Positions 9,051 through 63,211 are shown, counted from the first letter of the stretch. The stretch is 64,000 bases of DNA from Terriglobia bacterium (GCA_020073245.1 JAIQFQ010000004.1:24181-88180); one strand, 5' to 3'. A program made the numbers and translations. Notes: generated by a model from the letters alone, not told the origin.

Positions 9051-9237
9051 CTGGGGGTGGAGGAAGCGAGTCGAGGGTAGGGCACCCAGTTACGAGTCAA
9101 GGGTGAAGAGTTAGAGGCAAACATGTGGAGACCATGCACCGCTGGCCAGATTCAACGCAGCAACGGCGACGGGACCCTTCGTCTTCGACTCTTCACTCTC
9201 AACTCTTGGCTCTTCGCTCGATCCTGAGCTTTGAGCC
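9051..9237. repeat. Purine-block / pyrimidine-block heptad dyad element, copy E
   Basis: GA-rich arm about 9055-9122 (ggaggaagcgagtcGAGGGTAgggc...gagtcaagggtgaagagttagaggcaaac). About 50-nt mixed spacer. CT-rich arm about 9175-9237 (cccttcgtcttcgactcttcactctcaactcttggctcttcgctcg...). GTGAAGAGT is present in the left arm and as its reverse complement in the right arm. Confidence 0.5.
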
Positions 9238-9347: not shown

Positions 9348-10984
<1,637 letters not shown>

Positions 10985-10988
<4 letters not shown>

Positions 10989-12664
10989 AGACCGGGGTCC
11001 GAGGTCCGGGGTCCGGGGTCCGAATCACGCTGATGGCGGCGGCGCTGGCGCTCGGGGCAGGCCTCGCCTGGGGCCAGGAGCGGACCACCCTCACAGTGCT
11101 CTTCACCTCGGATATGCACGGCCACGTGTTGCCGTTCGACGACCTCCGTGATCGTCCGTCGGACGGCTCGGTTGCTCAGGTCGCATCGCTCGTCGCGCGG
11201 CTCCGCGGAGCGAGCTCGCGACTCGTTGTCCTCGACGGCGGCGATGCGATCGAAGGCACGCCGCTGGGGTACTACGCCATCGCCGCCGCGGGCGCCTCGG
11301 GGATCGATCCGACCATTGCTGCGATGAACCTCGTGGGCTACGACGCGGCGGTGCTCGGAAATCACGAGTTCAACTTCGGCCTCGACGTTTTGCGCCGCTC
11401 GGTCTCGCAGTCGAGGTTCCCGTGGTTGGGGGCGAACCTTTCCGGTTGTGACCAGGCGCACCTGTCGGCGCGCGACGAGCTGCTGGTTGAGCGCGGCGGG
11501 ATCAAGGTCGGCATTCTCGGGCTGACAAACCCCAATGTGCCTCACTGGGATCCACCATCGCACTGGGCCGGGCTCGTGTTTGAGGATCCGGTCCCGGTTG
11601 CCCTCGCGCACCTTCCCAGCCTCCGCGCGCGAGCCGATGTGGTCATCCTGGTCGTCCATAGCGGTTTCGAGCGGGATCTCGAAACCGGCGCCCGGAACGA
11701 CACCGACAGTGAGAACTTCGCGTACCGCCTGGCACAGCTTCCGGGCATCGACCTGCTGCTCACCGGTCACACACACCGCGCCATCCCGCCACGTGCTCTC
11801 GGCAGGACGATCGTGGCTCAACCGGGTCGCTGGGCGGAATTCGTCACGAGAGTCGACCTCGAGCTCGCGCGCGAGGGCAGTTCATGGAAGGTGACCGGTT
11901 GGAGAGGGGAGAACGTGCCTACGAGAGGAGAGCCGGCGGACCCGGACGTGGTGGCGGCCGTGAGCGGTGAGGAAGCGAAGACGAAGGCGGAGCTCGCCCG
12001 CCCGCTTGGCGAGCTCACGGCACCTCTCAACGTCACCAGCATACCGATCGGCGACGACCCCAGCGTCGACCTCATCCATGCGGTGCAGCTCGAGGCGAGC
12101 GGAGCCCAACTCTCCCTCGCCGCGCCTCTCGGCAGCCATGTCGAGTTCGCGGCGGGACCGCTCACACCGCGTCTCGCCTATGCACTGTACCCGTACCCCA
12201 ACACGTTGCTCGTAGTGCGCCTCACCGGGAGGCAACTCAAGGATGTCCTCGAGCACGCTGTTCGGGGCTGGACCGGGGTCGAGTGCGCCGGTGGCTGCAC
12301 GCTCCAGCGCGACCCCGACCTTCCACCGTACAACTACGACACGCTCGAGGGCGGCACCTACCTCGTGGACCCGACCGCTCCGGTTGGGCAGCGCGTCCGC
12401 GGGCTGCGTGTGAACGGTGCGCAGGTGGGGCCCGATGACACTTTCACGGTCGCGATCAACTCGTACCGCGCTGCCGGGGGCGGCGGGTTTCCGCATCTCG
12501 CTACGGCGCCCCGCGTCATCGAGATCGCCCGGCCAATGGTGGACCTCATCACCGAGTACATCGCTCGTCACGGGAAGGTGACACCCGTCGCCGACTACAA
12601 CTGGGCGTTCACCGTCCCGCTGCGCGTTGCGCCGGGCGGGAGGCCGGCGGCCCCGTCCAGGTGA
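10985..12664 (+). CDS. Secreted bifunctional metallophosphatase / 5'-nucleotidase (UshA/CpdB-like)
   Basis: 559 aa. Signal-like [14 protein letters not shown]. Metallophosphoesterase motifs [23 protein letters not shown] and a C-terminal 5'-nucleotidase domain. The GTG start overlaps the mutase stop (GTGA). An internal ATG about 11033 is an alternative start. Confidence 0.85.
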
Positions 12665-28957: not shown

Positions 28958-29002
28958 GTCCGTCACGACGCCCGGGCCGAGGTTGACCATTGGGCTTGAA
29001 AT

Positions 29003-29140
29003 GGTCAGACGGAGGAAGTCAGAGGTGAAAAGGGAAGACGTGAAAGGGAAGATCAATAGCACACGGGCTTCTGTGAGGCTGTTTTCTGTCTGACCTTTGA
29101 CGTTTGACCCTTGACCTCTTCTTGTCGAACCTTCGAACCC
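29003..29140. repeat. Purine-block / pyrimidine-block heptad dyad element, copy A
   Basis: GA-rich arm 29003 to about 29055 (ggtcagacggaggaagtcagaggtgaaaagggaagacgtgaaagggaagatcaa). CT-rich arm about 29079-29140 containing four tandem heptads CTGACCT TTGACGT TTGACCC TTGACCT. GGTCAGAC (29003-29010) is the exact complement of GTCTGACC (29088-29095). Ends with TCGAACCTTCGAA (29125-29137). Confidence 0.55.
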
Positions 29141-29154
29141 TGCGTTATGAAACA

Positions 29155-29188
29155 CGAAGGCTCCCCGCATCGGGGAGCCTTCGATTTT
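29155..29188. terminator. Intrinsic terminator, probably bidirectional, between the convergent GT21-like and S1 genes
   Basis: CGAAGGCTCCCC-gcatc-GGGGAGCCTTCG, a perfect 12-bp stem (29155-29183), followed by aTTTTc on the plus strand. It lies 22 nt beyond the S1 gene stop on the minus strand. Confidence 0.6.
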
Positions 29189-29204
29189 CTGACGAAAGCT
29201 CGGT

Positions 29205-34558: not shown

Positions 34559-34600
34559 GTCCCGTAGCCGCCCTCAATCGCCCAGTCAGGGGAATCTCAC

Positions 34601-34737
34601 GGGTAAAAGGTCAAAGGTAAGAGGGTAGACGGGAGACGGAAGAGGGAAATCGTTAAAGGGCAAACGGAAGCCAAGGTCACCCGTTGTCTTTCCTCTACCT
34701 TCTACCCTCTTCCCTTCCTCTCTTTGCCACCTTGAGG
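34601..34737. repeat. Purine-block / pyrimidine-block heptad dyad element, copy B
   Basis: Ten consecutive heptads at 34607-34676: AAGGTCA AAGGTAA GAGGGTA GACGGGA GACGGAA GAGGGAA ATCGTTA AAGGGCA AACGGAA GCCAAGG. Short centre, then the CT-rich arm 34686-34737. Its reverse complement reads ...AAGGGAA GAGGGTA GAAGGTA GAGGAAA. Confidence 0.6.
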
Positions 34738-39869: not shown

Positions 39870-42848
39870 ATGACCGCTTGGGACAGACCGGACGGACTCT
39901 CGGAGTACGACCCGACGCACACGGTGCTCCGCGACCTGATGGGGTATCGGGTGCGCGAGGTACTGCTCGTGTCCTCGCTGTACGACTCGTACATCCTCGA
40001 GGAGGACGGCCAGCTCTCGGAGAGCCTCGATGCCGAGTTCTACCAGCTGAACCTCTCGACGGCGCCCCGCATCACCCAGGTCTCAACGGCCCAGGAGGCG
40101 CTGGCGACGTTGCAGAGGCGGCCGTTCGACCTGGTGATCACGATGCCCCGACTGGGTGGGATGGATGTCAAGGCGTTCGCCCGCGCCGTCAAGGGGCTCC
40201 ACCCCGACCTTCCGGTCGTCATGCTCGCCGACAACCACTTCGAGGCGCACCGGGTCAAGGAGCTCAATGAGCCAGGGATGCTCGACCAGGTGTTCGTGTG
40301 GCGCGGCGACGTGGCACTGTTCCTCGCGATCATCAAGTACATCGAGGACCGCCGCAACGTACGGCGCGACACCTCCCTCGCCAGCGTACGCACCATCATC
40401 CTGGTCGAGAACTCGGTGCGCTTCTACTCCGCCTACCTCCCGCTGCTGTACACGGAGCTCACGGCCCAGACGCACGCGCTGATGGCGGATGGGGTCAACG
40501 CGCGCCAGCGTCTTAGGCGGATGAAAGCGCGCGCCAAGATTCTGCTCGCCGAGACGTTCGAGGAAGGGTGGGCACTGTTCGACGAGTTCCGTGCGACGAC
40601 GCTTGGAATCATCACCGATGCCCGCTTTCCGAGGGGGGGCGAGAGCGACCCCGAGGCCGGCCTCGAGTTCGTGCGCCGGGTCAAGGCCGAGGACCCGGAT
40701 ATGCCTGCGCTCCTCCAGTCCACGGACGAGACGCTCGAGGAGCGCGCCCACGCTCTCGGTGCCGCGTTTCTGCACAAGCACTCGCCGCGACTGCTCGAGG
40801 AGCTGCGGCGCTTCATGCGCTCCAATCTGGGGTTCGGCGACTTCGTCTTCCTCGACCCGGTAACGGGGGCGGAGGTGGCTCGCGTCTCCGACCTCGGCGG
40901 GATGCCGCGAGCGCTCCGGGCGGTGCCAGGGGAGTCGCTTCGCTATCACGCCTCCCGCAACCACTTCTCAAACTGGTGCATGGCTCGCACCGAGTTCGCC
41001 CTCGCAGCACGAATCAGGCCCTGGAAGGTCTCGGACTTCAAGGATGTGGAGGAGTTGCGTTCGTACCTCATCGATGCGTTCGCCGAACTCCAGTCGGAAG
41101 CACGTCGCGGCGTGGTCGCCGACTTCACCCCACGGGAGTTCGAGGGACTAGCTGGCTTCGTGCGGATCGGCGCGGGTTCAATGGGGGGCAAAGGGCGCGG
41201 CCTCGGGTTCATCAACTCGTTGTTGTCGCGCGAGGAGGTGACCGAGGACGGGGTTCGCGCTGCGGTTCCGCCCGCCGCTGTCATCGGCACCGATGTCTTC
41301 GATGACTTCCTTCGGATGAGAGGCCTCCTCGCGCTTGCGCTGTCGGACGCGAGCGATCGGGCGATCGAAGACGCGTTCCTCGCCGCGCCGCTGCCGCCGG
41401 CCCTCGAGCGCGACCTCTGGGCGATCGTCGAACGCACGTCGGTGCCGCTGGCCGTGCGGTCGTCGAGCCTACTGGAGGACTCCTACGACCAGCCGTTCGC
41501 CGGGATCTACCGCACCCTGATGCTCGCCAACGGCGACCCCGACCCGGCCGTGCGACACGCTGAGCTTTCGGCCGCGGTGAAACTGGTGTACGCCTCGACG
41601 TTCTCGAGAAGCGCGAAGGCGTACCTCGCAAACACCCCGCACCGCCCCGAGGAGGAAAAGATGGCGGTGGTGGTGCAGCGGGTCGTCGGGCGCAGCCACG
41701 GAAGGTTCTTCTACCCGTCGTTCGCCGGTGTGGCGTGCTCGCGCAACTACTACCCGGTGCTCGGACTCAAGGCGGAGGAGGGTCTGGCCGCCGTGGCGCT
41801 CGGCTTCGGGAAGACGGTGGTCGAGGGCGGACGAGCCGTGCGCTTCTCCCCGGGCTCGCCTGGAAACGTACCGCAGTTCGCCTCGACCGCCGCCGTGTTG
41901 GAGACGGCCCAGCGCGAGTTTGTGGCGCTCGACCTCGAGCGTGTCGGTACCGTTGGGGGCAGCGACCATACCGACGCGCTCGTGGTGCTCGGGCTCGCCG
42001 AGGCCGAGCACCACGGCACGCTCCACCCGCTCGGTTCCGTCTACTCGCCCGACAACGACGCGATCTACGACGGCGTGTCCCGACCCGGGATTCGCGTCGT
42101 GACGTTCGCCCCCATCCTCAAGACCGACGTGTTTCCGCTCTCCCGTCTCCTCACGCGGCTGCTGTCGCTCGGGGAGCGGGCGATGAGCTGTCCGGTTGAG
42201 GTCGAGTTTGCGGTCAACCTGCCGTCGCGCGGGGAGCCGGGGGAGCTCGCGGTGCTGCAGGTGCGCCCGCTCGTGGTAGAGGTGGGCAGCGAGGACCTCG
42301 ACGCGATCCTGCGCGTCACCACCCACGACGACATCTTCTGTCTCTCGGAACAAGCGCTCGGGGAGGGGCGCGTGCAGGGCATCCGGGACGTCGTGTACGT
42401 CAGACCCTCGGCGTTTGACCGCTCCCAGACGCCGGCGGTCGCGGTGGAGGTGGAGGAGATCAACCGAACCCTCGCCGAGGAGGGACGTCCCTACCTGCTG
42501 ATCGGACCCGGGCGGTGGGGGACATCGGACCAGTGGCTAGGGGTTCCCGTGGAATGGGACCAGATCGCGGGTGCTCGGGTCATCCTTGAGACCGAACTCG
42601 ACGACGTGCCGGTGACGCCTTCCGAGGGCACGCACTTCTTCCAGAACATCACCTCGTTCGGGATCGGTTACCTCACCGTGCACCGACGCGGCGGCAGAGG
42701 CCGCGTTGATTTCGACTGGCTGGATGGCCTGTCAGCCAGCACCCAGACGCGCTTCCTGCGGCACGTCAGGCTTGAGCGGCCCCTGGACGTCCGCATCGAC
42801 GGCCGATCCGGACGCGGCATCGTGCTCAAGACCCCGTTCGGCCTCTGA
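39870..42848 (+). CDS. REC-like domain + PEP/pyruvate-binding (PPDK_N-type) domain protein
   Basis: ATG 39870 within tracked ORF 39516..42848 (992 aa). N-terminal receiver-like fold (REVLLVSSLYD..., FDLVITMPRLGGMDV, VVMLAD). The central SMGGKGRGLGF...LAVRSSSLLEDSYDQPFAGIY region is characteristic of the ATP-grasp PEP/pyruvate-binding domain of PEP synthase/PPDK relatives. C-terminal GPGRWGTSD...PSEGTHFFQN. Confidence 0.8.
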   Translation: MTAWDRPDGLSEYDPTHTVLRDLMGYRVREVLLVSSLYDSYILEEDGQLSESLDAEFYQLNLSTAPRITQVSTAQEALATLQRRPFDLVITMPRLGGMDVKAFARAVKGLHPDLPVVMLADNHFEAHRVKELNEPGMLDQVFVWRGDVALFLAIIKYIEDRRNVRRDTSLASVRTIILVENSVRFYSAYLPLLYTELTAQTHALMADGVNARQRLRRMKARAKILLAETFEEGWALFDEFRATTLGIITDARFPRGGESDPEAGLEFVRRVKAEDPDMPALLQSTDETLEERAHALGAAFLHKHSPRLLEELRRFMRSNLGFGDFVFLDPVTGAEVARVSDLGGMPRALRAVPGESLRYHASRNHFSNWCMARTEFALAARIRPWKVSDFKDVEELRSYLIDAFAELQSEARRGVVADFTPREFEGLAGFVRIGAGSMGGKGRGLGFINSLLSREEVTEDGVRAAVPPAAVIGTDVFDDFLRMRGLLALALSDASDRAIEDAFLAAPLPPALERDLWAIVERTSVPLAVRSSSLLEDSYDQPFAGIYRTLMLANGDPDPAVRHAELSAAVKLVYASTFSRSAKAYLANTPHRPEEEKMAVVVQRVVGRSHGRFFYPSFAGVACSRNYYPVLGLKAEEGLAAVALGFGKTVVEGGRAVRFSPGSPGNVPQFASTAAVLETAQREFVALDLERVGTVGGSDHTDALVVLGLAEAEHHGTLHPLGSVYSPDNDAIYDGVSRPGIRVVTFAPILKTDVFPLSRLLTRLLSLGERAMSCPVEVEFAVNLPSRGEPGELAVLQVRPLVVEVGSEDLDAILRVTTHDDIFCLSEQALGEGRVQGIRDVVYVRPSAFDRSQTPAVAVEVEEINRTLAEEGRPYLLIGPGRWGTSDQWLGVPVEWDQIAGARVILETELDDVPVTPSEGTHFFQNITSFGIGYLTVHRRGGRGRVDFDWLDGLSASTQTRFLRHVRLERPLDVRIDGRSGRGIVLKTPFGL

Positions 42849-43108
42849 CTCTCTGCAGGCGCCGCCGGCGTCGGACCATCTATCCGTGCGGGCGGTCCCG
42901 CGGCCGCCCCGCCACCCGCCCAGCCGCTCTAGACCCCCCGAGCCCCCGTGAGCCGCGGCGGAGCCGCGTCTCGCCCAGAGCGTTGCGCTCGGCGGTTCGC
43001 ATCCTCATGGTGCCTCCAGCTACACTCCGGTGCGACGGGCTCGTGCGCCTTGCGAGAGGCCCAACGGCGGCGGCGCGGCTGCCCGCCATGCTGTGAGGCC
43101 CTGCCTGC

Positions 43109-43222
43109 GCTGAAGAGGGAAGAAGGAAGAGGGAAGACGAAGGATGGTGGGCGGAAGGCAGTCTCTGCCTTCCCTCTACCGTGTCCCCTCTACCCTCTCC
43201 CGTTCCGTCTCGTCTGCTGAAG
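43109..43222. repeat. Purine-block / pyrimidine-block heptad dyad element, copy C (best-defined copy)
   Basis: Heptads GAGGGAA GAAGGAA GAGGGAA GACGAAG GATGGTG GGCGGAA (43115-43156). Perfect core hairpin GGAAGGCAG-tct-CTGCCTTCC (43153-43173). The reverse complement of the CT-rich arm reads AACGGGA GAGGGTA GAGGGGA CACGGTA GAGGGAA. GCTGAAG is present at both ends (43109-43115 and 43216-43222). Confidence 0.65.
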
Positions 43223-43232
43223 TCGGGCGCAC

Positions 43233-43796
43233 CTACTTGGCGGCGGGAGCCGGAGGCACTGGGTCCGGGACGTGGTTCTTGATTGGGGGTACCGTTCTCA
43301 GGTAGGCGTAGATCGCCTTGAGGTCCTCGTCCGTCATCTTCCCGACCCAGTTCCACGGCATCGGTGGGAGAATCTCCCGCCCGCCGCCGAAGTGCTGGCC
43401 CGTCCTCATCGCCTTGATGAAGTTCTCCTCCGAGAGAGCGCCGAGCCCCGTCTCGGAGTCGGGCGTGAGGTTGCTCGTGTAGCTGATCCCCCACGGCCCG
43501 GCCCACGCCGTCATGGTCAGCGCCGCGACCGCCCCCCACGGCCCCGGCGGCAGTGCAGGAGGCGGCGGGAACTTCATGGCCTCCGGGTGACCGGAAAGCA
43601 TTCGGGCCATGTCGGGTTCGGGGCCCTTCTCGCCGAGCTTCCAGGGTGTGTGGCAGTCGTTACACCCCCCGACCGTGACGAGGTACTTCCCGTGCTCGGC
43701 CGGCGACTGCGCGGCTACGGTCGACCGCGGCTGCTGGCACGCGGCGGCCGCGACGCACATCATTGTGAGGCCTGCGAGTGGTGTCCTCAACCTCAT
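43233..43796 (-). CDS. c-type cytochrome (single CxxCH), exported
   Basis: 187 aa. Signal/lipobox-like MMCVAAAAC, heme motif GGCNDCH. Distal PPMPW region may supply the Met ligand. Confidence 0.8.
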   Translation of the reverse strand: MRLRTPLAGLTMMCVAAAACQQPRSTVAAQSPAEHGKYLVTVGGCNDCHTPWKLGEKGPEPDMARMLSGHPEAMKFPPPPALPPGPWGAVAALTMTAWAGPWGISYTSNLTPDSETGLGALSEENFIKAMRTGQHFGGGREILPPMPWNWVGKMTDEDLKAIYAYLRTVPPIKNHVPDPVPPAPAAK

Positions 43797-43954
43797 CTCT
43801 GCTCTTCCTCCTGATTATGACATTGAAACGCAGTCTACATATCAGGATCGGTTTGTCAAGCGTTTGCAACGGGCCGGCGCATCCTCGTGTTACGATCCCA
43901 CGGCGCCGGACCCGTCGGCGCCACACACCTTTTGCGCGAAGGGGCGGAACGGAC

Positions 43955-57235: not shown

Positions 57236-57240
57236 CGGCG

Positions 57241-57382
57241 GGAAGCAGGAAGAACGGGAAACGGTAGAGGGAAGACGGGCGGGGGAGCAGAGGGGCAGAG
57301 GAGCGGAGGAGCGGAGCGGCGATGCCGTCGCCCTCCCCTGTTTTTTCTCGCTCCTCGGCTCCCCAGCACCCCGCTCCTCTGC
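57241..57382. repeat. Purine-block / pyrimidine-block heptad dyad element, copy D
   Basis: GA-rich arm 57241 to about 57320 with heptads AACGGGA AACGGTA GAGGGAA GACGGGC (57253-57280). Central hairpin around GGCGA-tgccg-TCGCC. CT-rich arm ccctcccctgttttttctcgctcctcggctccccagcaccccgctcctctgc. Followed by TCGAACCTTCGAA at 57396-57408. Confidence 0.55.
57313..57346 (+). terminator. Terminator-like core of element D downstream of the M23 peptidase gene
   Basis: GGAG(c)GGCGA-tgccg-TCGCCCTCC (9 bp with one bulge) followed 4 nt later by TTTTTT (57341-57346). Confidence 0.4.
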
Positions 57383-57467
57383 AGCTGGGGAGCGTTCGAA
57401 CCTTCGAATGTGTGAACCTCTGGACCCTCATTGCCTGGCAGTTGTTGCCCGCGCGGGCGGCGAGACG

Positions 57468-57473
57468 TAGACT
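57468..57473 (+). promoter_or_regulatory. Putative -10 hexamer TAGACT, 6 nt upstream of ATG 57480 (leaderless-type arrangement)
   Basis: TAGACT-cacgaa-ATG read directly. No SD. Confidence 0.45.
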
Positions 57474-59229: not shown

Positions 59230-59682
59230 ATGCCGGACCGAAAATACAGGCACCGCGGGTATCAGGACGAGGAGCGCCACGAGGAGCGCCGGCCTCCCGA
59301 CAGTGGGCCGCCGCGCGAACGTCCTGAGGGTCCGCGGGGTCGGGGACTGGGCGCTCCGACCCTGACGGTGTTCCGCTGCCGGATGTGCGGCACGCGGCAG
59401 CAACTCTCTGGAGCGGTCGGCCCGGAAAGCACTTGCGTCAGCTGTGGCAACGACCTGCACACCTGCTCGAACTGCATCCAGTTCGACACCTCGCGTCCGA
59501 ACGAGTGTCGCAAGCCGGTCGTCCAGCGCATCACGAACAAAACCAGGCGCAACGCCTGTGAGCTGTTCACACCCAACACGGTGCAGGAATTTGCCTCCGA
59601 CATGCCGGCAGTCGCAACCCCTGACGGCGGATCGATCGCAAGCCCGCGCGCCGCCTTCGACGCTCTCTTCAAGAAGAAGTGA
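59230..59682 (+). CDS. Hypothetical zinc-ribbon protein with basic/acidic N-terminal tail
   Basis: ATG 59230 within tracked ORF 59065..59682. 150 aa. CRMCG...CVSCGNDLHTCSNC...ECRKP...NACELF cysteine clusters. Confidence 0.5.
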   Translation: MPDRKYRHRGYQDEERHEERRPPDSGPPRERPEGPRGRGLGAPTLTVFRCRMCGTRQQLSGAVGPESTCVSCGNDLHTCSNCIQFDTSRPNECRKPVVQRITNKTRRNACELFTPNTVQEFASDMPAVATPDGGSIASPRAAFDALFKKK

Positions 59683-59870
59683 ATTCGGCTCGCCAGGCGA
59701 GCCGAATTCATCCCGAGCGAAGCGAGGGATCCCCCCGCGCCACGTTGGCTTGAGCAGGCTCGCCAGGCGAGCCGAATTCATCCCGAGCGAAGCGAGGGAT
59801 CCCCCCGCGCCACGTTGGCTTGAGCAGGCTCGCCGGGCGAGCCGAGTTCATCCCGAGCGAAGCGAGGGAC
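59681..59870. repeat. 70-bp tandem repeat (2 identical copies plus a diverged partial third), each unit carrying a palindrome
   Basis: Unit GGCTCGCCAGGCGAGCCGAATTCATCCCGAGCGAAGCGAGGGATCCCCCCGCGCCACGTTGGCTTGAGCA at 59687-59756 and 59757-59826 (identical by eye). The third copy, 59827 to about 59870, has 3 substitutions. A 29-nt perfect palindrome GAATTCGGCTCGCC-A-GGCGAGCCGAATTC at 59681-59709 starts directly after the TGA of the zinc-ribbon gene. Confidence 0.85.
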
Positions 59871-59995
59871 CCCTCAGCGCGAGAGGGGACGGCCATTCGA
59901 GAGTCTTTTGTCTGGTGGTCATTCGTGACGTGCGCCCGTGCGAGCGCCGCGCGTGCCTCATCGCGGGAGAGCGGCCGGCTGCTGAGGCCCGCCGA

Positions 59996-60051: not shown

Positions 60052-61233
60052 CTAGTCCATCTGGCGTCGCAGGTACGTGGGCGTGTCGAGCTCCGAGAAG
60101 TTTCCGACGTTGACGCCGTAGTCGGAGGGAAGGTTGGCCGGCAGGTACGGGCTGCCCGGGTCGACCTGCTTCTCTGCCCGCGCGGACTCCTTCGGAAGCA
60201 AGCGCTCGGGCTGGCGCGCGGGCCGGTCCTCCGCGGTGGCGCCGAAGCCGGTCGCGACGACCGTGACCTGGATCTTTCCGGCCAGCTCTTCCCGCTGCCC
60301 GTATCCGAACAGGAACAGGCAGTCCTGGGAGCAGCGCTTGGCGATGTACTCGGCGGCGTCGTTGATCTCCGAGATCGTCGTGTCAACCCCGCCGACGAAG
60401 TTCACCAGCACCCGCTGCGCCCCTTCGAGGGAGGCCTCTTCGAGGAGTGGCGAGGAGAACGCCTGCTGCGCCGCCTCGATGGCGCGGTGCTCGCCCTGGC
60501 CGTGGCCGATGCCCATGAGCGCCATGCCGCCGCCGCGCATCACGGTCTCGACGTCCGCGAAATCGCGGTTGATGATCCCGGTCTCGTTGATGATGTCCGA
60601 GATCCCTTCGACGCCGTGACGGAGCGCCTCGTCGGCGAGCTGGAACGCCTCTTCGACCGAGACCTGCGGCCCGACCATCTGCAGGAGGCGCGAGTTTGGC
60701 ACCGTGATGAGGGTGTCCACGCATTTCCGCAGTTCCTCGATCCCCTTCTCGGCGATCCGAGCCTTTCGCGTTCCCTCGAAGGCGAAGGGCTTGGTCACGA
60801 CGGCAACCGTGAGGGCGCCCGCGTCGCGGGCCAGGTTACCGATGACCGGGGCCGCTCCGGTCCCCGTGCCGCCCCCCATCCCGGCGGCGATGAAGACCAT
60901 ATCGGCGCCTTCGAGACACTCGATGAGATCGTCGGTCCTGTCGAGTGCCGCACGGTTCGCGGCGTCCGGGTCACAGCCGGCACCGAGCGCCTTGCCGCGA
61001 GAGTTCGGGGTGACGAGCTGCAACCGAACACCGGCCCGGCTCGCGCGGAGCGCCTGCCCGTCGGTGTTGACCGCGATGAACTCGACGCCCTTGATGCCGG
61101 CGGCGATCATTCGGTTGACCGCGTTGCTGCCACCCCCACCGACTCCCAAGACCTTGATCACCGCAGGCGAGGAGTCGTCGGCGATGGTGATCGCCGGCAC
61201 CGTGGCGCCCTTGGAGTCGTCGAACGTAATCAT
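60052..61233 (-). CDS. ftsZ: Cell division protein FtsZ
   Basis: ATG 61233 preceded by GGAGGTGGAGA. IKVLGVGGGGSNAVNRM, tubulin signature GMGGGTGTGAAPV, NRDFADV. C-terminal DTPTYLRRQ peptide. It is the 3' part of the artefactual 940-aa tracked ORF. Confidence 0.97.
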   Translation of the reverse strand: MITFDDSKGATVPAITIADDSSPAVIKVLGVGGGGSNAVNRMIAAGIKGVEFIAVNTDGQALRASRAGVRLQLVTPNSRGKALGAGCDPDAANRAALDRTDDLIECLEGADMVFIAAGMGGGTGTGAAPVIGNLARDAGALTVAVVTKPFAFEGTRKARIAEKGIEELRKCVDTLITVPNSRLLQMVGPQVSVEEAFQLADEALRHGVEGISDIINETGIINRDFADVETVMRGGGMALMGIGHGQGEHRAIEAAQQAFSSPLLEEASLEGAQRVLVNFVGGVDTTISEINDAAEYIAKRCSQDCLFLFGYGQREELAGKIQVTVVATGFGATAEDRPARQPERLLPKESARAEKQVDPGSPYLPANLPSDYGVNVGNFSELDTPTYLRRQMD

Positions 61234-62495
61234 TCTCCACCTCCCCTTTTCGCAAGGAACTTGCGTGAAATTCGAGACCATATGCTCTCTCGTCGCCGTC
61301 GATCCCGAACGACCGGCAGCGCCGAGGGAAGAAGCAAATTTCGACCGTGCACCAGCAGCCCCACTGCGACCGCCGGCGATCGCGCGGGAAGCTCGGAGCT
61401 CGCGAGCAGGTGTGTGGCGTCCGGGACGCCCTCGAGCTCCCCGAGGCGTGCGCGCTTGACGAAGACCTCCTCGGCCAGCGCGGCGAGCCCTTCGAGATGG
61501 GCGCCCCCGCCGGAGAGGACGACGCCCGTACAGGGCGCGTCCTGGGGGATCTGACGCCACACCTCGGCGGCGATCAACTCGAACGTCTCCTGCATCCGCA
61601 GGCGGATCGTCTTGCACAGCTCGCGGCGGGAGATGACGTGACTGCCGCGCCCCTCGATCGTCGGGACGGAGATCGTCTCCTCCTCCCCGACGTCGCCCAG
61701 CAGCATGGTGCCCGCCTCCCGCTTGGCGGTCTCCGCGCCTGCAGCAGTGGTCTGGAAGCGGTGCACGAGGTCGTCGTTGATCTTGTTGCTGCCGATCGGG
61801 AAGCAGCCGGCCGCGAGCAGTTTGTCGCCAGAGAAGGCGGCGTAGCTGGAGGTGCCGTAGCCGACGTCGATGAGAATCGAGCCAAGGCGGCGCTCGTCCG
61901 AGGTGAGCGTCGCGTTGGCCGCCGCCACCGGCGCGAAGAGGAACTCCTCGACCTCGAGACCGGCTTCGTTGATTGCCTTCTCGAGCGTCCGGACCGGGTT
62001 CTCCTGGCACGCAAGGACATATGCATCCGCTGCCAGTTGCCGGCCCACCATCGCCTGTGGGTCGAGGATGCCATCCTGGTCGTCGAGAGCGTAGGTGGGA
62101 GAGACCACGTTGAGGACCGTGTGTCCCGTTGGCAGCGGCTGGCGTCGTACGGCCTCGTGGAGGGCCTCCAGGTCGGTGAGCGTCACTTCGCGCTCGCGCG
62201 CCCCCATGGCAATCGCGGCCCGTGTCAGGCGCCCGCTCACGAAGATACCTGCAACCGACGCGATCACCTTCTCCACGGGAAGCTTCGCCATGAGCTCGGC
62301 CTCTTCGGCTGCGGCCTTGATGGCTGCCACCACGGGTTTCATCTGAACGACTTGTCCCGAGCGCATGCCGTTCGAGGGCGCGAGCCCGACGCCGCGGATC
62401 ACCATCTCGTCGCGCTCCGAGAGCTCCGCGATGAGTGCCAGCACGCGATGGTTCCCGATATCGAGGGCGGCGATGATCCTCGGGCCCTGCGCCAT
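61230..62495 (-). CDS. ftsA: Cell division protein FtsA
   Basis: ATG 62495 within tracked ORF 61230..62594. IAALDIGNHRV, IDVGYGTSSY, VVLSGGGAHLEGL actin-fold motifs. Its stop overlaps the ftsZ ATG (ATGA). Confidence 0.93.
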   Translation of the reverse strand: MAQGPRIIAALDIGNHRVLALIAELSERDEMVIRGVGLAPSNGMRSGQVVQMKPVVAAIKAAAEEAELMAKLPVEKVIASVAGIFVSGRLTRAAIAMGAREREVTLTDLEALHEAVRRQPLPTGHTVLNVVSPTYALDDQDGILDPQAMVGRQLAADAYVLACQENPVRTLEKAINEAGLEVEEFLFAPVAAANATLTSDERRLGSILIDVGYGTSSYAAFSGDKLLAAGCFPIGSNKINDDLVHRFQTTAAGAETAKREAGTMLLGDVGEEETISVPTIEGRGSHVISRRELCKTIRLRMQETFELIAAEVWRQIPQDAPCTGVVLSGGGAHLEGLAALAEEVFVKRARLGELEGVPDATHLLASSELPARSPAVAVGLLVHGRNLLLPSALPVVRDRRRRESIWSRISRKFLAKRGGGE

Positions 62496-63211
62496 CACGA
62501 TTCCCCTTCGGGAGCGACCTGCCCCGGCAGGACCGCGACACGCCCGGCCAACCGGGCGTCCAGGCGGAGGGGAACCGATCGCTTCGCGGTCCATGCGGTG
62601 AATACGCGTCGCGCCGTGACCAACTCCTCCGGCCTCCCCGGGTCGGCCAGTACAGGTGCTGAGATCTCTGCAAAGTGAAGCGCGACATCGTGAGGACCGA
62701 CGCGCTCGACGCGCTCGAGCTTTCCGCCCCAGGCGCCCTCGAGGGTCGGCACGACTGCGAGAAGTGTCTCCCTCTCCTCGGGGAACGGTCCGAACCCTTC
62801 GAGGCGAAGGAGCGACGAGGCGGCCTCGATCGTCGCGAGGAGACGGCCCTCACGGTCGACCAGCTGCCGCACACCCGCGTCGACCTCGACGGCCACGGGG
62901 ACGCGTTCCACGACGGCGCATGTCACGACACCGTCGAGTGACACCCGGACGGTGGCATCCTCGACCCAGGGTACCGCTCGGACCTTGGCGCGCAGCGCGC
63001 TGGCACGCGTGGCGACCGTCGGGCTGCCGAGAGCGGAACGGAGCACGCTCTCAACATCCCGTGCGGCGAAGCGCCGGGCGCCCACAACCCGGACCTCCCG
63101 CACCTGGAGCGCCACGGCCAGGGTGGCGGTGGCTGCGAGCGTCACAAGCGCAGGCAGCGCACGGCGGAGGAACCGGCGGACCGGGTGGCGGTGACGGCGA
63201 GGCGCGCTCAC
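62495..63211 (-). CDS. ftsQ: Cell division protein FtsQ/DivIB (POTRA + FtsQ domains)
   Basis: GTG 63211 overlaps the murC stop (GTGA). Basic N-terminus, one TM (ALVTLAATATLAVAL), then VREVRVVGARRF...VPWVEDATVRV (POTRA-like). Position between murC and ftsA. Confidence 0.75.
   Translation of the reverse strand: MSAPRRHRHPVRRFLRRALPALVTLAATATLAVALQVREVRVVGARRFAARDVESVLRSALGSPTVATRASALRAKVRAVPWVEDATVRVSLDGVVTCAVVERVPVAVEVDAGVRQLVDREGRLLATIEAASSLLRLEGFGPFPEERETLLAVVPTLEGAWGGKLERVERVGPHDVALHFAEISAPVLADPGRPEELVTARRVFTAWTAKRSVPLRLDARLAGRVAVLPGQVAPEGES

Follow-up and report, generated by a model that had tools for sequence, protein, structure and literature searches.

A 64-kb stretch of DNA from a Terriglobia bacterium (GCA_020073245.1 JAIQFQ010000004.1:24181-88180), referred to here as the window, contains a pair of inverted arrays of degenerate G/A-rich heptads around a perfect hairpin, located at positions 43109-43222 in the gap between the convergent genes for a PPDK_N-type protein and a cytochrome c. 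We call this element copy C. Its membership in a known and widespread class of bacterial heptamer repeats is well supported, and comparison with related genomes places it in a hypervariable slot where relatives have a terminator. A terminator-type or transcript-end role is probable for its hairpin, and our preferred explanation, held tentatively, is that the arrays grew in place by 7-nt slippage and that the resulting hairpin would serve the ends of transcripts arriving from both sides. The genome has a G+C content of 67%, and all window-level scans and counts given below are confined to these 64 kb. The parts of copy C are as follows:

43109-43152, no strand assigned: 5' purine-rich arm, about six degenerate heptads (GCTGAAG AGGGAAG AAGGAAG AGGGAAG ACGAAGG ATGGTGG GC)
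43116-43152, no strand assigned: left arm without the border heptad GCTGAAG (AGGGAAG AAGGAAG AGGGAAG ACGAAGG ATGGTGG GC)
43153-43173, no strand assigned: core hairpin, a perfect 9 bp, GGAAGGCAG (43153-43161), loop TCT, CTGCCTTCC (43165-43173)
43174-43215, no strand assigned: 3' pyrimidine-rich arm, reverse complement AGACGAG ACGGAAC GGGAGAG GGTAGAG GGGACAC GGTAGAG
43216-43222, + strand: second GCTGAAG at the border of copy C, the first being 43109-43115, within the left arm and in phase with its array

All of the parts named in the original prediction (the left-arm heptads, the hairpin, the right-arm heptads and both GCTGAAG borders) are present in the sequence, and the gene calls agree with its placement of the element between convergent PPDK_N-type and cytochrome c genes. 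Each arm consists of about six heptads, with the purine consensus GASGGNA on the left and complementary pyrimidine heptads on the right; matches to a pattern of three consecutive GASGGNA heptads fall in both arms, those of the right arm being three on the - strand. Lag autocorrelation was compared with 500 dinucleotide-preserving shuffles, and the 7-nt period claimed earlier stood up to this formal check, with z scores at lag 7 of 3.5 for the left arm (0/500 shuffles as high), 2.3 for the right arm (p 0.028) and 6.0 for the whole element. The corresponding values at lag 14 were 3.6, 2.6 and 5.3, and outside lags 7 and 14 no lag was prominent in this test. Tandem Repeats Finder (TRF), which is independent of the autocorrelation, concurred, placing a period-7 repeat at 43112-43137 and a period-14 repeat at 43172-43201. 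The units are degenerate rather than perfect, though by autocorrelation, TRF and pattern scan their head-to-tail 7-nt iteration exceeds chance. The earlier view that such a period does not reflect coding was also borne out, with every period-7, -14 and -16 TRF array and every lag-7 segment in the window being intergenic, while the period-9, -12, -15 and -18 arrays lie in coding sequence.

Folding of the copy C region gave -65.1 kcal/mol for RNA of the + strand (z -2.5), -64.7 kcal/mol for RNA of the - strand (z -2.7) and -23.5 kcal/mol for DNA (z -2.5). Each strand can fold into one long imperfect hairpin of about 50 bp that has several near-equal registers 7 nt apart. Outside the 9-bp core, complementarity of the arms was 0.70 at register 0, 0.62 at -7 and 0.70 at -14, and averaged 0.51 in registers other than multiples of 7. 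A consensus terminator scan does not call copy C, and canonical terminators showed no excess in 20 kb of the window (12 versus 9.4 in shuffles). Searching the whole window against Rfam at gathering thresholds returned zero matches, and a search for tRNA and transfer-messenger RNA (tmRNA) genes found none. For 42700-43400, a permissive Rfam scan gave sub-threshold microRNA-precursor look-alikes only (E >= 0.01), which are generic long hairpins, and assignment to an Rfam family was rejected.

The site itself was compared in relatives of the window genome. The PPDK_N/receiver protein beside copy C is 76-83% identical to proteins of metagenome-assembled genomes of the Thermoanaerobaculaceae (Acidobacteriota), and the nearest relative is the genome of L010, in which the cytochrome c is 91% identical and the PPDK_N-type protein about 81%. 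An exact look-up of the window's cytochrome c protein gave no record, which places the window genome itself outside the collection searched. Copy C occupies the gap between these two genes and leaves 10 nt between its end and the stop codon of the cytochrome c gene. At this position, L010 has inverted octad arrays (GCAGAGGR) running from the PPDK_N stop codon onward, L001 has a direct heptad array (CCACGRN x4), L023 has a plain GC-rich hairpin, and both L006 and L207 show an ordinary intrinsic terminator, made of a plain GC-rich hairpin and then TTTCTTGTTT when read in the direction of the cytochrome c gene. Between L001 and the window, the approximately 260-nt spacer before the element is 74% identical (188/254), versus 42% for the copy C interval. 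Sequence turnover at the orthologous site was complete in this comparison, which was made between species. Elsewhere, L010 carries a GASGGNA inverted element after an aminotransferase gene, with a central GC hairpin and then GTTTTTCC (a GTTTTT run), and the window has no repeat at the matching position.

The spacer that separates copy C from the PPDK_N-type stop codon (42849-43108) is itself non-coding, with no long open reading frame (ORF) in its approximately 260 nt. Its first 30 or so nucleotides (GGCGCCACCGATAGCGGACC) are likewise found behind the orthologous gene of L007 and of L008, and it contains a canonical G-quadruplex (G4) motif on the - strand at 42897-42921. The spacer is a candidate for a conserved regulatory element or non-coding RNA.

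Scans of the window for purine tracts, inverted repeats and lag-7 periodicity located five further intergenic loci besides copy C, and a canonical terminator was found beside one of them:

28996-29135, no strand assigned: copy A, inverted heptad arrays with GASGKRA and GTCAAAG-type words; lag-14 z 2.8 and 3.5; TRF period 7 at 29091-29117
34593-34734, no strand assigned: copy B, inverted GASGGNA arrays; left arm lag-7 z 5.6
57236-57385, no strand assigned: copy D, two to three GASGGNA heptads leading into an array of 8/16-nt period (GCAGAGGR) and, last, a pyrimidine arm; TRF period 16 at 57273-57309
9056-9235, no strand assigned: copy E, inverted heptad arrays with GAGNNRA words; lag-7 z 2.3 and 3.4
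10990-11024, + strand: unpaired direct heptad array, GTCCGRG x4.4-5; TRF period 7, 91% matches
29149-29189, both strands: canonical bidirectional intrinsic terminator beside copy A, 13-bp stem CGAAGGCTCCCCG-cat-CGGGGAGCCTTCG, A-rich 5' flank and T-run 3' flank

Further copies had been expected by the original prediction, and they were found at six loci in the window counting copy C, at others in L010, and widely in metagenomes. The heptad consensus G-A-S-G-G-n-A describes copies B and C and the start of copy D, and copies A and E use other words. Three consecutive GASGGNA units with at most two mismatches matched 11 times in the window against 0.05 expected, all 11 within copies B, C and D, and the word GAGGGWA occurred 24 times against 11.9 expected, with the surplus located in the elements. 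The recurrence of such words in copies B, D and E was correctly placed by the earlier note (34621, 34703 as TACCCTC, 57267 and 9073), but autocorrelation and TRF show that copy D is mostly 8/16-periodic rather than heptadic, and copy E is built of GAGNNRA words. With regard to gene context, copy A (between a convergent glycosyltransferase gene and S1-domain gene) and copy C lie between convergent genes, and copies B and D and the direct array follow an upstream stop codon in tandem arrangements, leaving copy E as divergent. Copy B begins 35 nt past the stop codon of an ApbA-like gene, with an MgtC/DUF4010 gene downstream, the first base of copy D is at the stop codon of an M23 peptidase gene, and the direct array exactly spans the interval from the methylmalonyl-CoA mutase stop codon to the start of the next gene (5'-nucleotidase-like). 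The terminator at 29149-29189 is the only strong terminator-like site in the 20 kb scanned.

Short sequences at the edges of these loci were also recorded. The 13-mer TCGAACCTTCGAA, with two TTCGAA palindromes, stands at the 3' edge of copy A (29125-29137) and of copy D (57396-57408), and the first L010 element contains the related GTGTGAACCTTCGAG on the other strand (L010 13330-13350). The exact 11-mer GAACCTTCGAA has two sites in the window, beside copies A and D, and none at the other loci. Promoter-like hexamers for the downstream genes were seen 3' of copies B and D. Those near copy D, TTGCCC-17-TAGACT at 57445-57473 on the + strand, end 7 nt before the ATG of a thioesterase gene (57480), which suggests a leaderless or very short-leader mRNA; copy D would then have a stop codon on one side and the next promoter on the other.

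When the order of heptads in the 3' arm was permuted, the fold was not weakened in copies A, B, C and E or in the second L010 element; depending on the element, a fraction of 0.13 to 0.45 of the permuted arms gave a fold as good as, or better than, that of the real 3' arm. A mirrored order of heptads between the arms was therefore rejected for these five elements, and the arms pair because they are complementary arrays, not because they make a position-specific stem. In some metagenome elements (L176, L110), a single base difference between the arms is repeated in each of the units, which points to amplification or homogenisation within each arm separately.

To place these loci in a wider context, we used a metagenome set obtained by scanning for three exact GASGGNA units, which yielded at least 120 stretches on contigs of 32-72% G+C and favours near-perfect GASGGNA arrays. 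Many of the listed stretches share the same build, namely a purine array, a spacer and a complementary pyrimidine array. Polarity was counted in 89 listed arrays with both flanks complete, taking as partner a reverse complement of at least 12/14 bases within 250 nt, and the inverted partner was 3' of the purine arm in 25 and 5' in 1. The ratio was 6 to 1 in the window and 80 genome loci taken together, and the purine arm is 5' in all five inverted window loci and in both L010 elements. Genes on the metagenome contigs were called by a crude GC-frame rule; with these calls, 16 of the 23 left neighbours on high-G+C contigs among the matches listed end facing the purine array, and in 12 of those 16 the stop codon is -3 to +6 nt from it. 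The ORFs flanking paired elements point inward in 16 cases and outward in 6 among the listed matches, and in a small sample of unpaired arrays no more than 5 nt from an ORF, 4/4 follow the stop codon with the G-rich strand in the mRNA sense. Allowing at most one mismatch, the commonest number of units among the matches listed was four. One Desulfobulbales metagenome-assembled genome (L068) carries a purine-then-pyrimidine inverted pair at 2339-2456, and also a direct array of CCGTCTC x4 (GAGACGG on the opposite strand) at 10055-10085.

Heptamer repeats of this kind have been described before. Rehm et al. (2015) reported heptameric repeats rich in G, with the unit GGGAATC in Xanthomonas and the unit GGGGAYT in Nostoc, at about 185 per genome, about 90% of them intergenic, and 70-75 'convergent' inverted pairs per genome (PMC4692102). 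The average distance of these repeats to the adjacent ORF is 28 nt, and they are under-represented between divergent genes (for Xanthomonas), vary in length and sequence between close species, and form G4 structures in vitro with four units preferred; no function was found (PMC4692102). Among simple-sequence repeats (SSRs), Mrazek et al. (2007), as cited in PMC4679880 and PMC4692102, identified heptanucleotides as the most abundant long class and suggested slippage of the polymerase as their origin. Across 7,006 genomes, Mori et al. (2018) ranked tandem heptamers first in abundance among intergenic periodic repeats and had 'no clear clue' to their function (10.1101/309039), and MacGregor (2015) described direct TAACTGA heptamer repeats in Beggiatoaceae and cyanobacteria (PMC4679880). 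The likeness between our loci and the Xanthomonas and Nostoc repeats extends to a 7-nt G-rich unit with conserved and free positions, convergence of the G-rich strands (purine, then pyrimidine), a location near ORF ends, rarity between divergent genes, and differences between related genomes. The short tandemly repeated repetitive (STRR) heptamers of cyanobacteria, cited in PMC4692102, also belong among the prokaryotic heptanucleotide repeats.

There are differences as well. In contrast to the Xanthomonas and Nostoc repeats, the loci studied here are from Acidobacteriota (Thermoanaerobaculaceae), the unit GASGGNA is more purine-rich and often has GG only, the arrays are far more degenerate, and the arms of copy C enclose a unique, perfect hairpin of 9 bp. 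Copy C also departs from that type in having no canonical G4 motif, for which four or more G3 tracts joined by short loops would be needed: the + strand has three GGG runs, and the motif on the - strand needs a 10-nt loop. Long heptanucleotide SSRs of prokaryotes in general share with our loci the tandem 7-nt units, the intergenic bias and the proposed slippage origin, but have been described as direct arrays, whereas inverted pairing, polarity and abutment on stop codons are features here. The TAACTGA repeats likewise form intergenic arrays of two to six or more units placed precisely relative to ORF boundaries, but they are A/T-rich, nearly always direct (1/170 sets inverted), and situated just upstream of start codons rather than after stops. 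The statement in the original prediction that no named family was recognised is thus superseded, since the architecture fits the published G-rich heptameric repeats with convergent inverted pairs (PMC4692102) and the general excess of intergenic heptamers. To this class copy C adds a new phylum, a different and more degenerate unit, and a perfect central hairpin.

The original prediction had also compared copy C to an insertion of a miniature inverted-repeat transposable element (MITE) with a target-site duplication. Copies A-E and those of L010 have no conserved termini or internal sequence, the heptad words being the only feature they share, and no 20-mer is conserved between the window copies, as would be looked for in repetitive extragenic palindromes (REPs) and the paired REPINs. 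In a flank test of 37 elements, 33 had no duplication of 6 nt or longer, and the longest word shared by the flanks followed the distribution from shuffled flank pairs. The exceptions were three matches of 6 nt and the one at copy C, whose length of 7 nt would arise in about 0.3% of elements, so that matches of at least 6 nt numbered 4/37 against about 0.8 expected, a slight excess; as the earlier note had said of the copies that it saw, only copy C has the 7-mer duplication. The word GCTGAAG occurs 16 times in the window against 8.9 expected, and since it keeps the phase of the left array and has the same GAAG ending, it reads as the first degenerate heptad; the border match is probably due to chance or derived from the array, and not a target-site duplication. 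As for the presence/absence differences in relatives that an insertion would predict, the orthologous intervals, bounded by the conserved spacer on one side and the stop codon of the cytochrome c gene on the other, hold unrelated sequence of other lengths, and none of the relatives compared has a clean empty site. Taken together, the lack of shared ends, of a general flank duplication and of an empty site argues against insertion as a unit.

The model that we tentatively prefer has two parts. The arrays would grow in place within a fast-evolving intergenic gap, most likely through 7-nt replication slippage in each arm, and not by insertion of a unit; the fast turnover at the copy C site relative to the adjoining spacer and the differing repeats in relatives favour such growth. 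The two arms together would then make a slippery long hairpin at the 3' ends of genes, able to pair in several registers and acting in RNA by terminating transcripts from either flank, protecting their 3' ends, or both. Every incoming polymerase would make the purine arm first, so the hairpin would close while the polymerase sits on a pyrimidine-RNA:purine-DNA hybrid. Such hybrids are relatively weak, and this weakness might substitute for a U-tract in a genome of 67% G+C. Bidirectional intrinsic terminators resemble copy C in lying just past convergent stops and in having a GC-rich core with purines 5' and pyrimidines 3' on both strands, but copy C has no U-tract, its arms are long heptad arrays, its pairing is register-degenerate, and its role in termination is a prediction.

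Several observations weigh against this model. No T-run follows the core hairpin of copy C on either strand, so the U-tract typical of an intrinsic terminator is absent, unlike in the second L010 element and beside copy A, where a hairpin and T-run are both present. Beyond the core, the arms of copy C pair at only about 70%, no better than with shuffled heptads, and selection for one stem is not seen. Folding energy and G-U pairs show no strand asymmetry tied to gene direction. The length of the central spacer varies from 0 to 235 nt among the metagenome elements, and strong structure (z < -2) is seen in 5/29 of these spacers only; a terminator core flanked by arrays is therefore not general, and we rejected a structured central core as a general feature. 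The crude gene calls on the metagenome contigs weaken the ORF-based counts. Copy E is one of the six window loci, and it lies between divergent genes, for a DUF4388 protein and the methylmalonyl-CoA mutase. Finally, in the L010 population, six samples were identical in both elements with no polymorphism in unit number, and slippage is thus not rapid in degenerate arrays.

Some of these same points would be expected if the arrays were a functionless by-product of mutation pressure, in which slippage fills unconstrained space until something under constraint is reached (for instance a stop codon, the core hairpin or a conserved spacer), and the hairpin is incidental. We regard this explanation as somewhat unlikely, though it accounts for arrays that abut stop codons and, at copy C, a conserved spacer, for the direct array that exactly fills a stop-to-start gap, for register-degenerate pairing that is no better than with shuffled heptad order, for the very fast turnover between relatives, and for arms homogenised independently. 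It also agrees with the literature, which ascribes the heptamer excess to polymerase slippage and reports no function (PMC4692102, PMC4679880, 10.1101/309039). However, slippage alone leaves unexplained why complementary arrays should stand side by side, as well as the 25:1 polarity of purine then pyrimidine, the bias toward gene 3' ends (16 inward versus 6 outward) and the depletion between divergent genes in Xanthomonas (PMC4692102).

A G4 or R-loop element, in which G-tracts 7 nt apart on the non-template strand past the stop would pause or end transcription from either side, would explain why the polarity places the G-rich strand in the mRNA sense after the stop of both flanking genes. The in vitro G4 structures of GGGAATC and GGGGAYT, with their preference for four units (PMC4692102), and the commonest unit number of four among the metagenome matches listed (at most one mismatch) point the same way. 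Among the window copies, a canonical G4 motif is present in copy D only, with extended-loop motifs in copies B and C, but copies A and E lack G-tracts, the G-runs of copy C are too few or too widely spaced for a canonical motif (as described above), many members have GG-only units (e.g. GACGGCA and GACGGAA), and the complementary arm would compete through the hairpin. We therefore consider this explanation improbable.

Still less probable, in our view, is an array of binding sites for a protein that reads single strands in steps of about 7 nt, such as a cold-shock/oligonucleotide-binding (OB) fold protein or another RNA-binding protein, with the element acting as a sponge or as a chaperone-controlled hairpin. 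The conserved positions G-A-S-G-G-n-A are common to several loci and genomes, and CspB binds heptamer repeats with one protein per heptamer, according to work cited in PMC4679880. Nevertheless, no candidate protein was identified, the units vary widely within one genome (GTCAAAG, GAGNNRA, GTCCGRG and octads), and the unit sequence at the same site changes between relatives. A non-autonomous mobile element, MITE-like or REPIN-like and inserted with GCTGAAG as a 7-bp target-site duplication, is highly improbable: copy C does resemble MITEs and REP/REPIN elements in its length of about 100 nt, intergenic location, inverted symmetry, hairpin potential and rare 7-bp flanking repeat, flank matches are in slight excess, and presence or absence differs between relatives at some sites, but the elements have no common terminal inverted repeats or internal sequence, mostly lack flank duplications, have arms that are tandem arrays, and are replaced at the orthologous site by unrelated sequence and not a clean empty site, while GCTGAAG is a common word in phase with the left array.

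A few other features of the window were recorded in passing. A promoter-like TTGACA-16-TAGACT lies upstream of the cytochrome c gene at 43832-43859 on the - strand. At 59687-59880, after an ORF ending at 59682, there is a tandem repeat of 2.8 copies of a 70-nt unit (95% identity), each of which contains the palindrome GGCTCGCCAGGCGAGCC and the hairpin ATCCCGAGCGAAGCGAGGGAT; its motif TCCCGAGCGNAGCGAGGGA is also found in the unrelated metagenome contigs L082, L089 and L187, and this 70-nt repeat may represent a separate dispersed repeat family. An ORF of 940 aa on the - strand (60052-62874) has FtsZ/tubulin GTPase and FtsZ_C domains at residues 573-877, preceded by an N-terminal extension of about 570 residues in which no Pfam match was found.

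For the heptamer repeats as a family, this locus extends the inverted-pair form to the Acidobacteriota and, together with the metagenome comparison, adds three regularities that can be tested: the purine arm comes first (25:1), arrays start at stop codons, and relatives have an ordinary terminator at the same site. Whichever function holds, annotation of copy C as a MITE is better avoided. A broader proposal, that inverted G/A-rich heptamer arrays are a widespread two-way gene-end module without a U-tract in several phyla, acting as terminator, insulator or R-loop/G4 pause site, seems to us unlikely on present data; if true, it would give a function to part of the unexplained excess of 7-nt repeats in prokaryotic intergenic DNA. 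If these hairpins do nothing, they would be a clean example of mutation-driven filling of intergenic space. If they do bring transcripts to an end or protect them while lacking a U-tract, this would bear on how terminators are predicted and operons annotated in little-studied phyla of high G+C.

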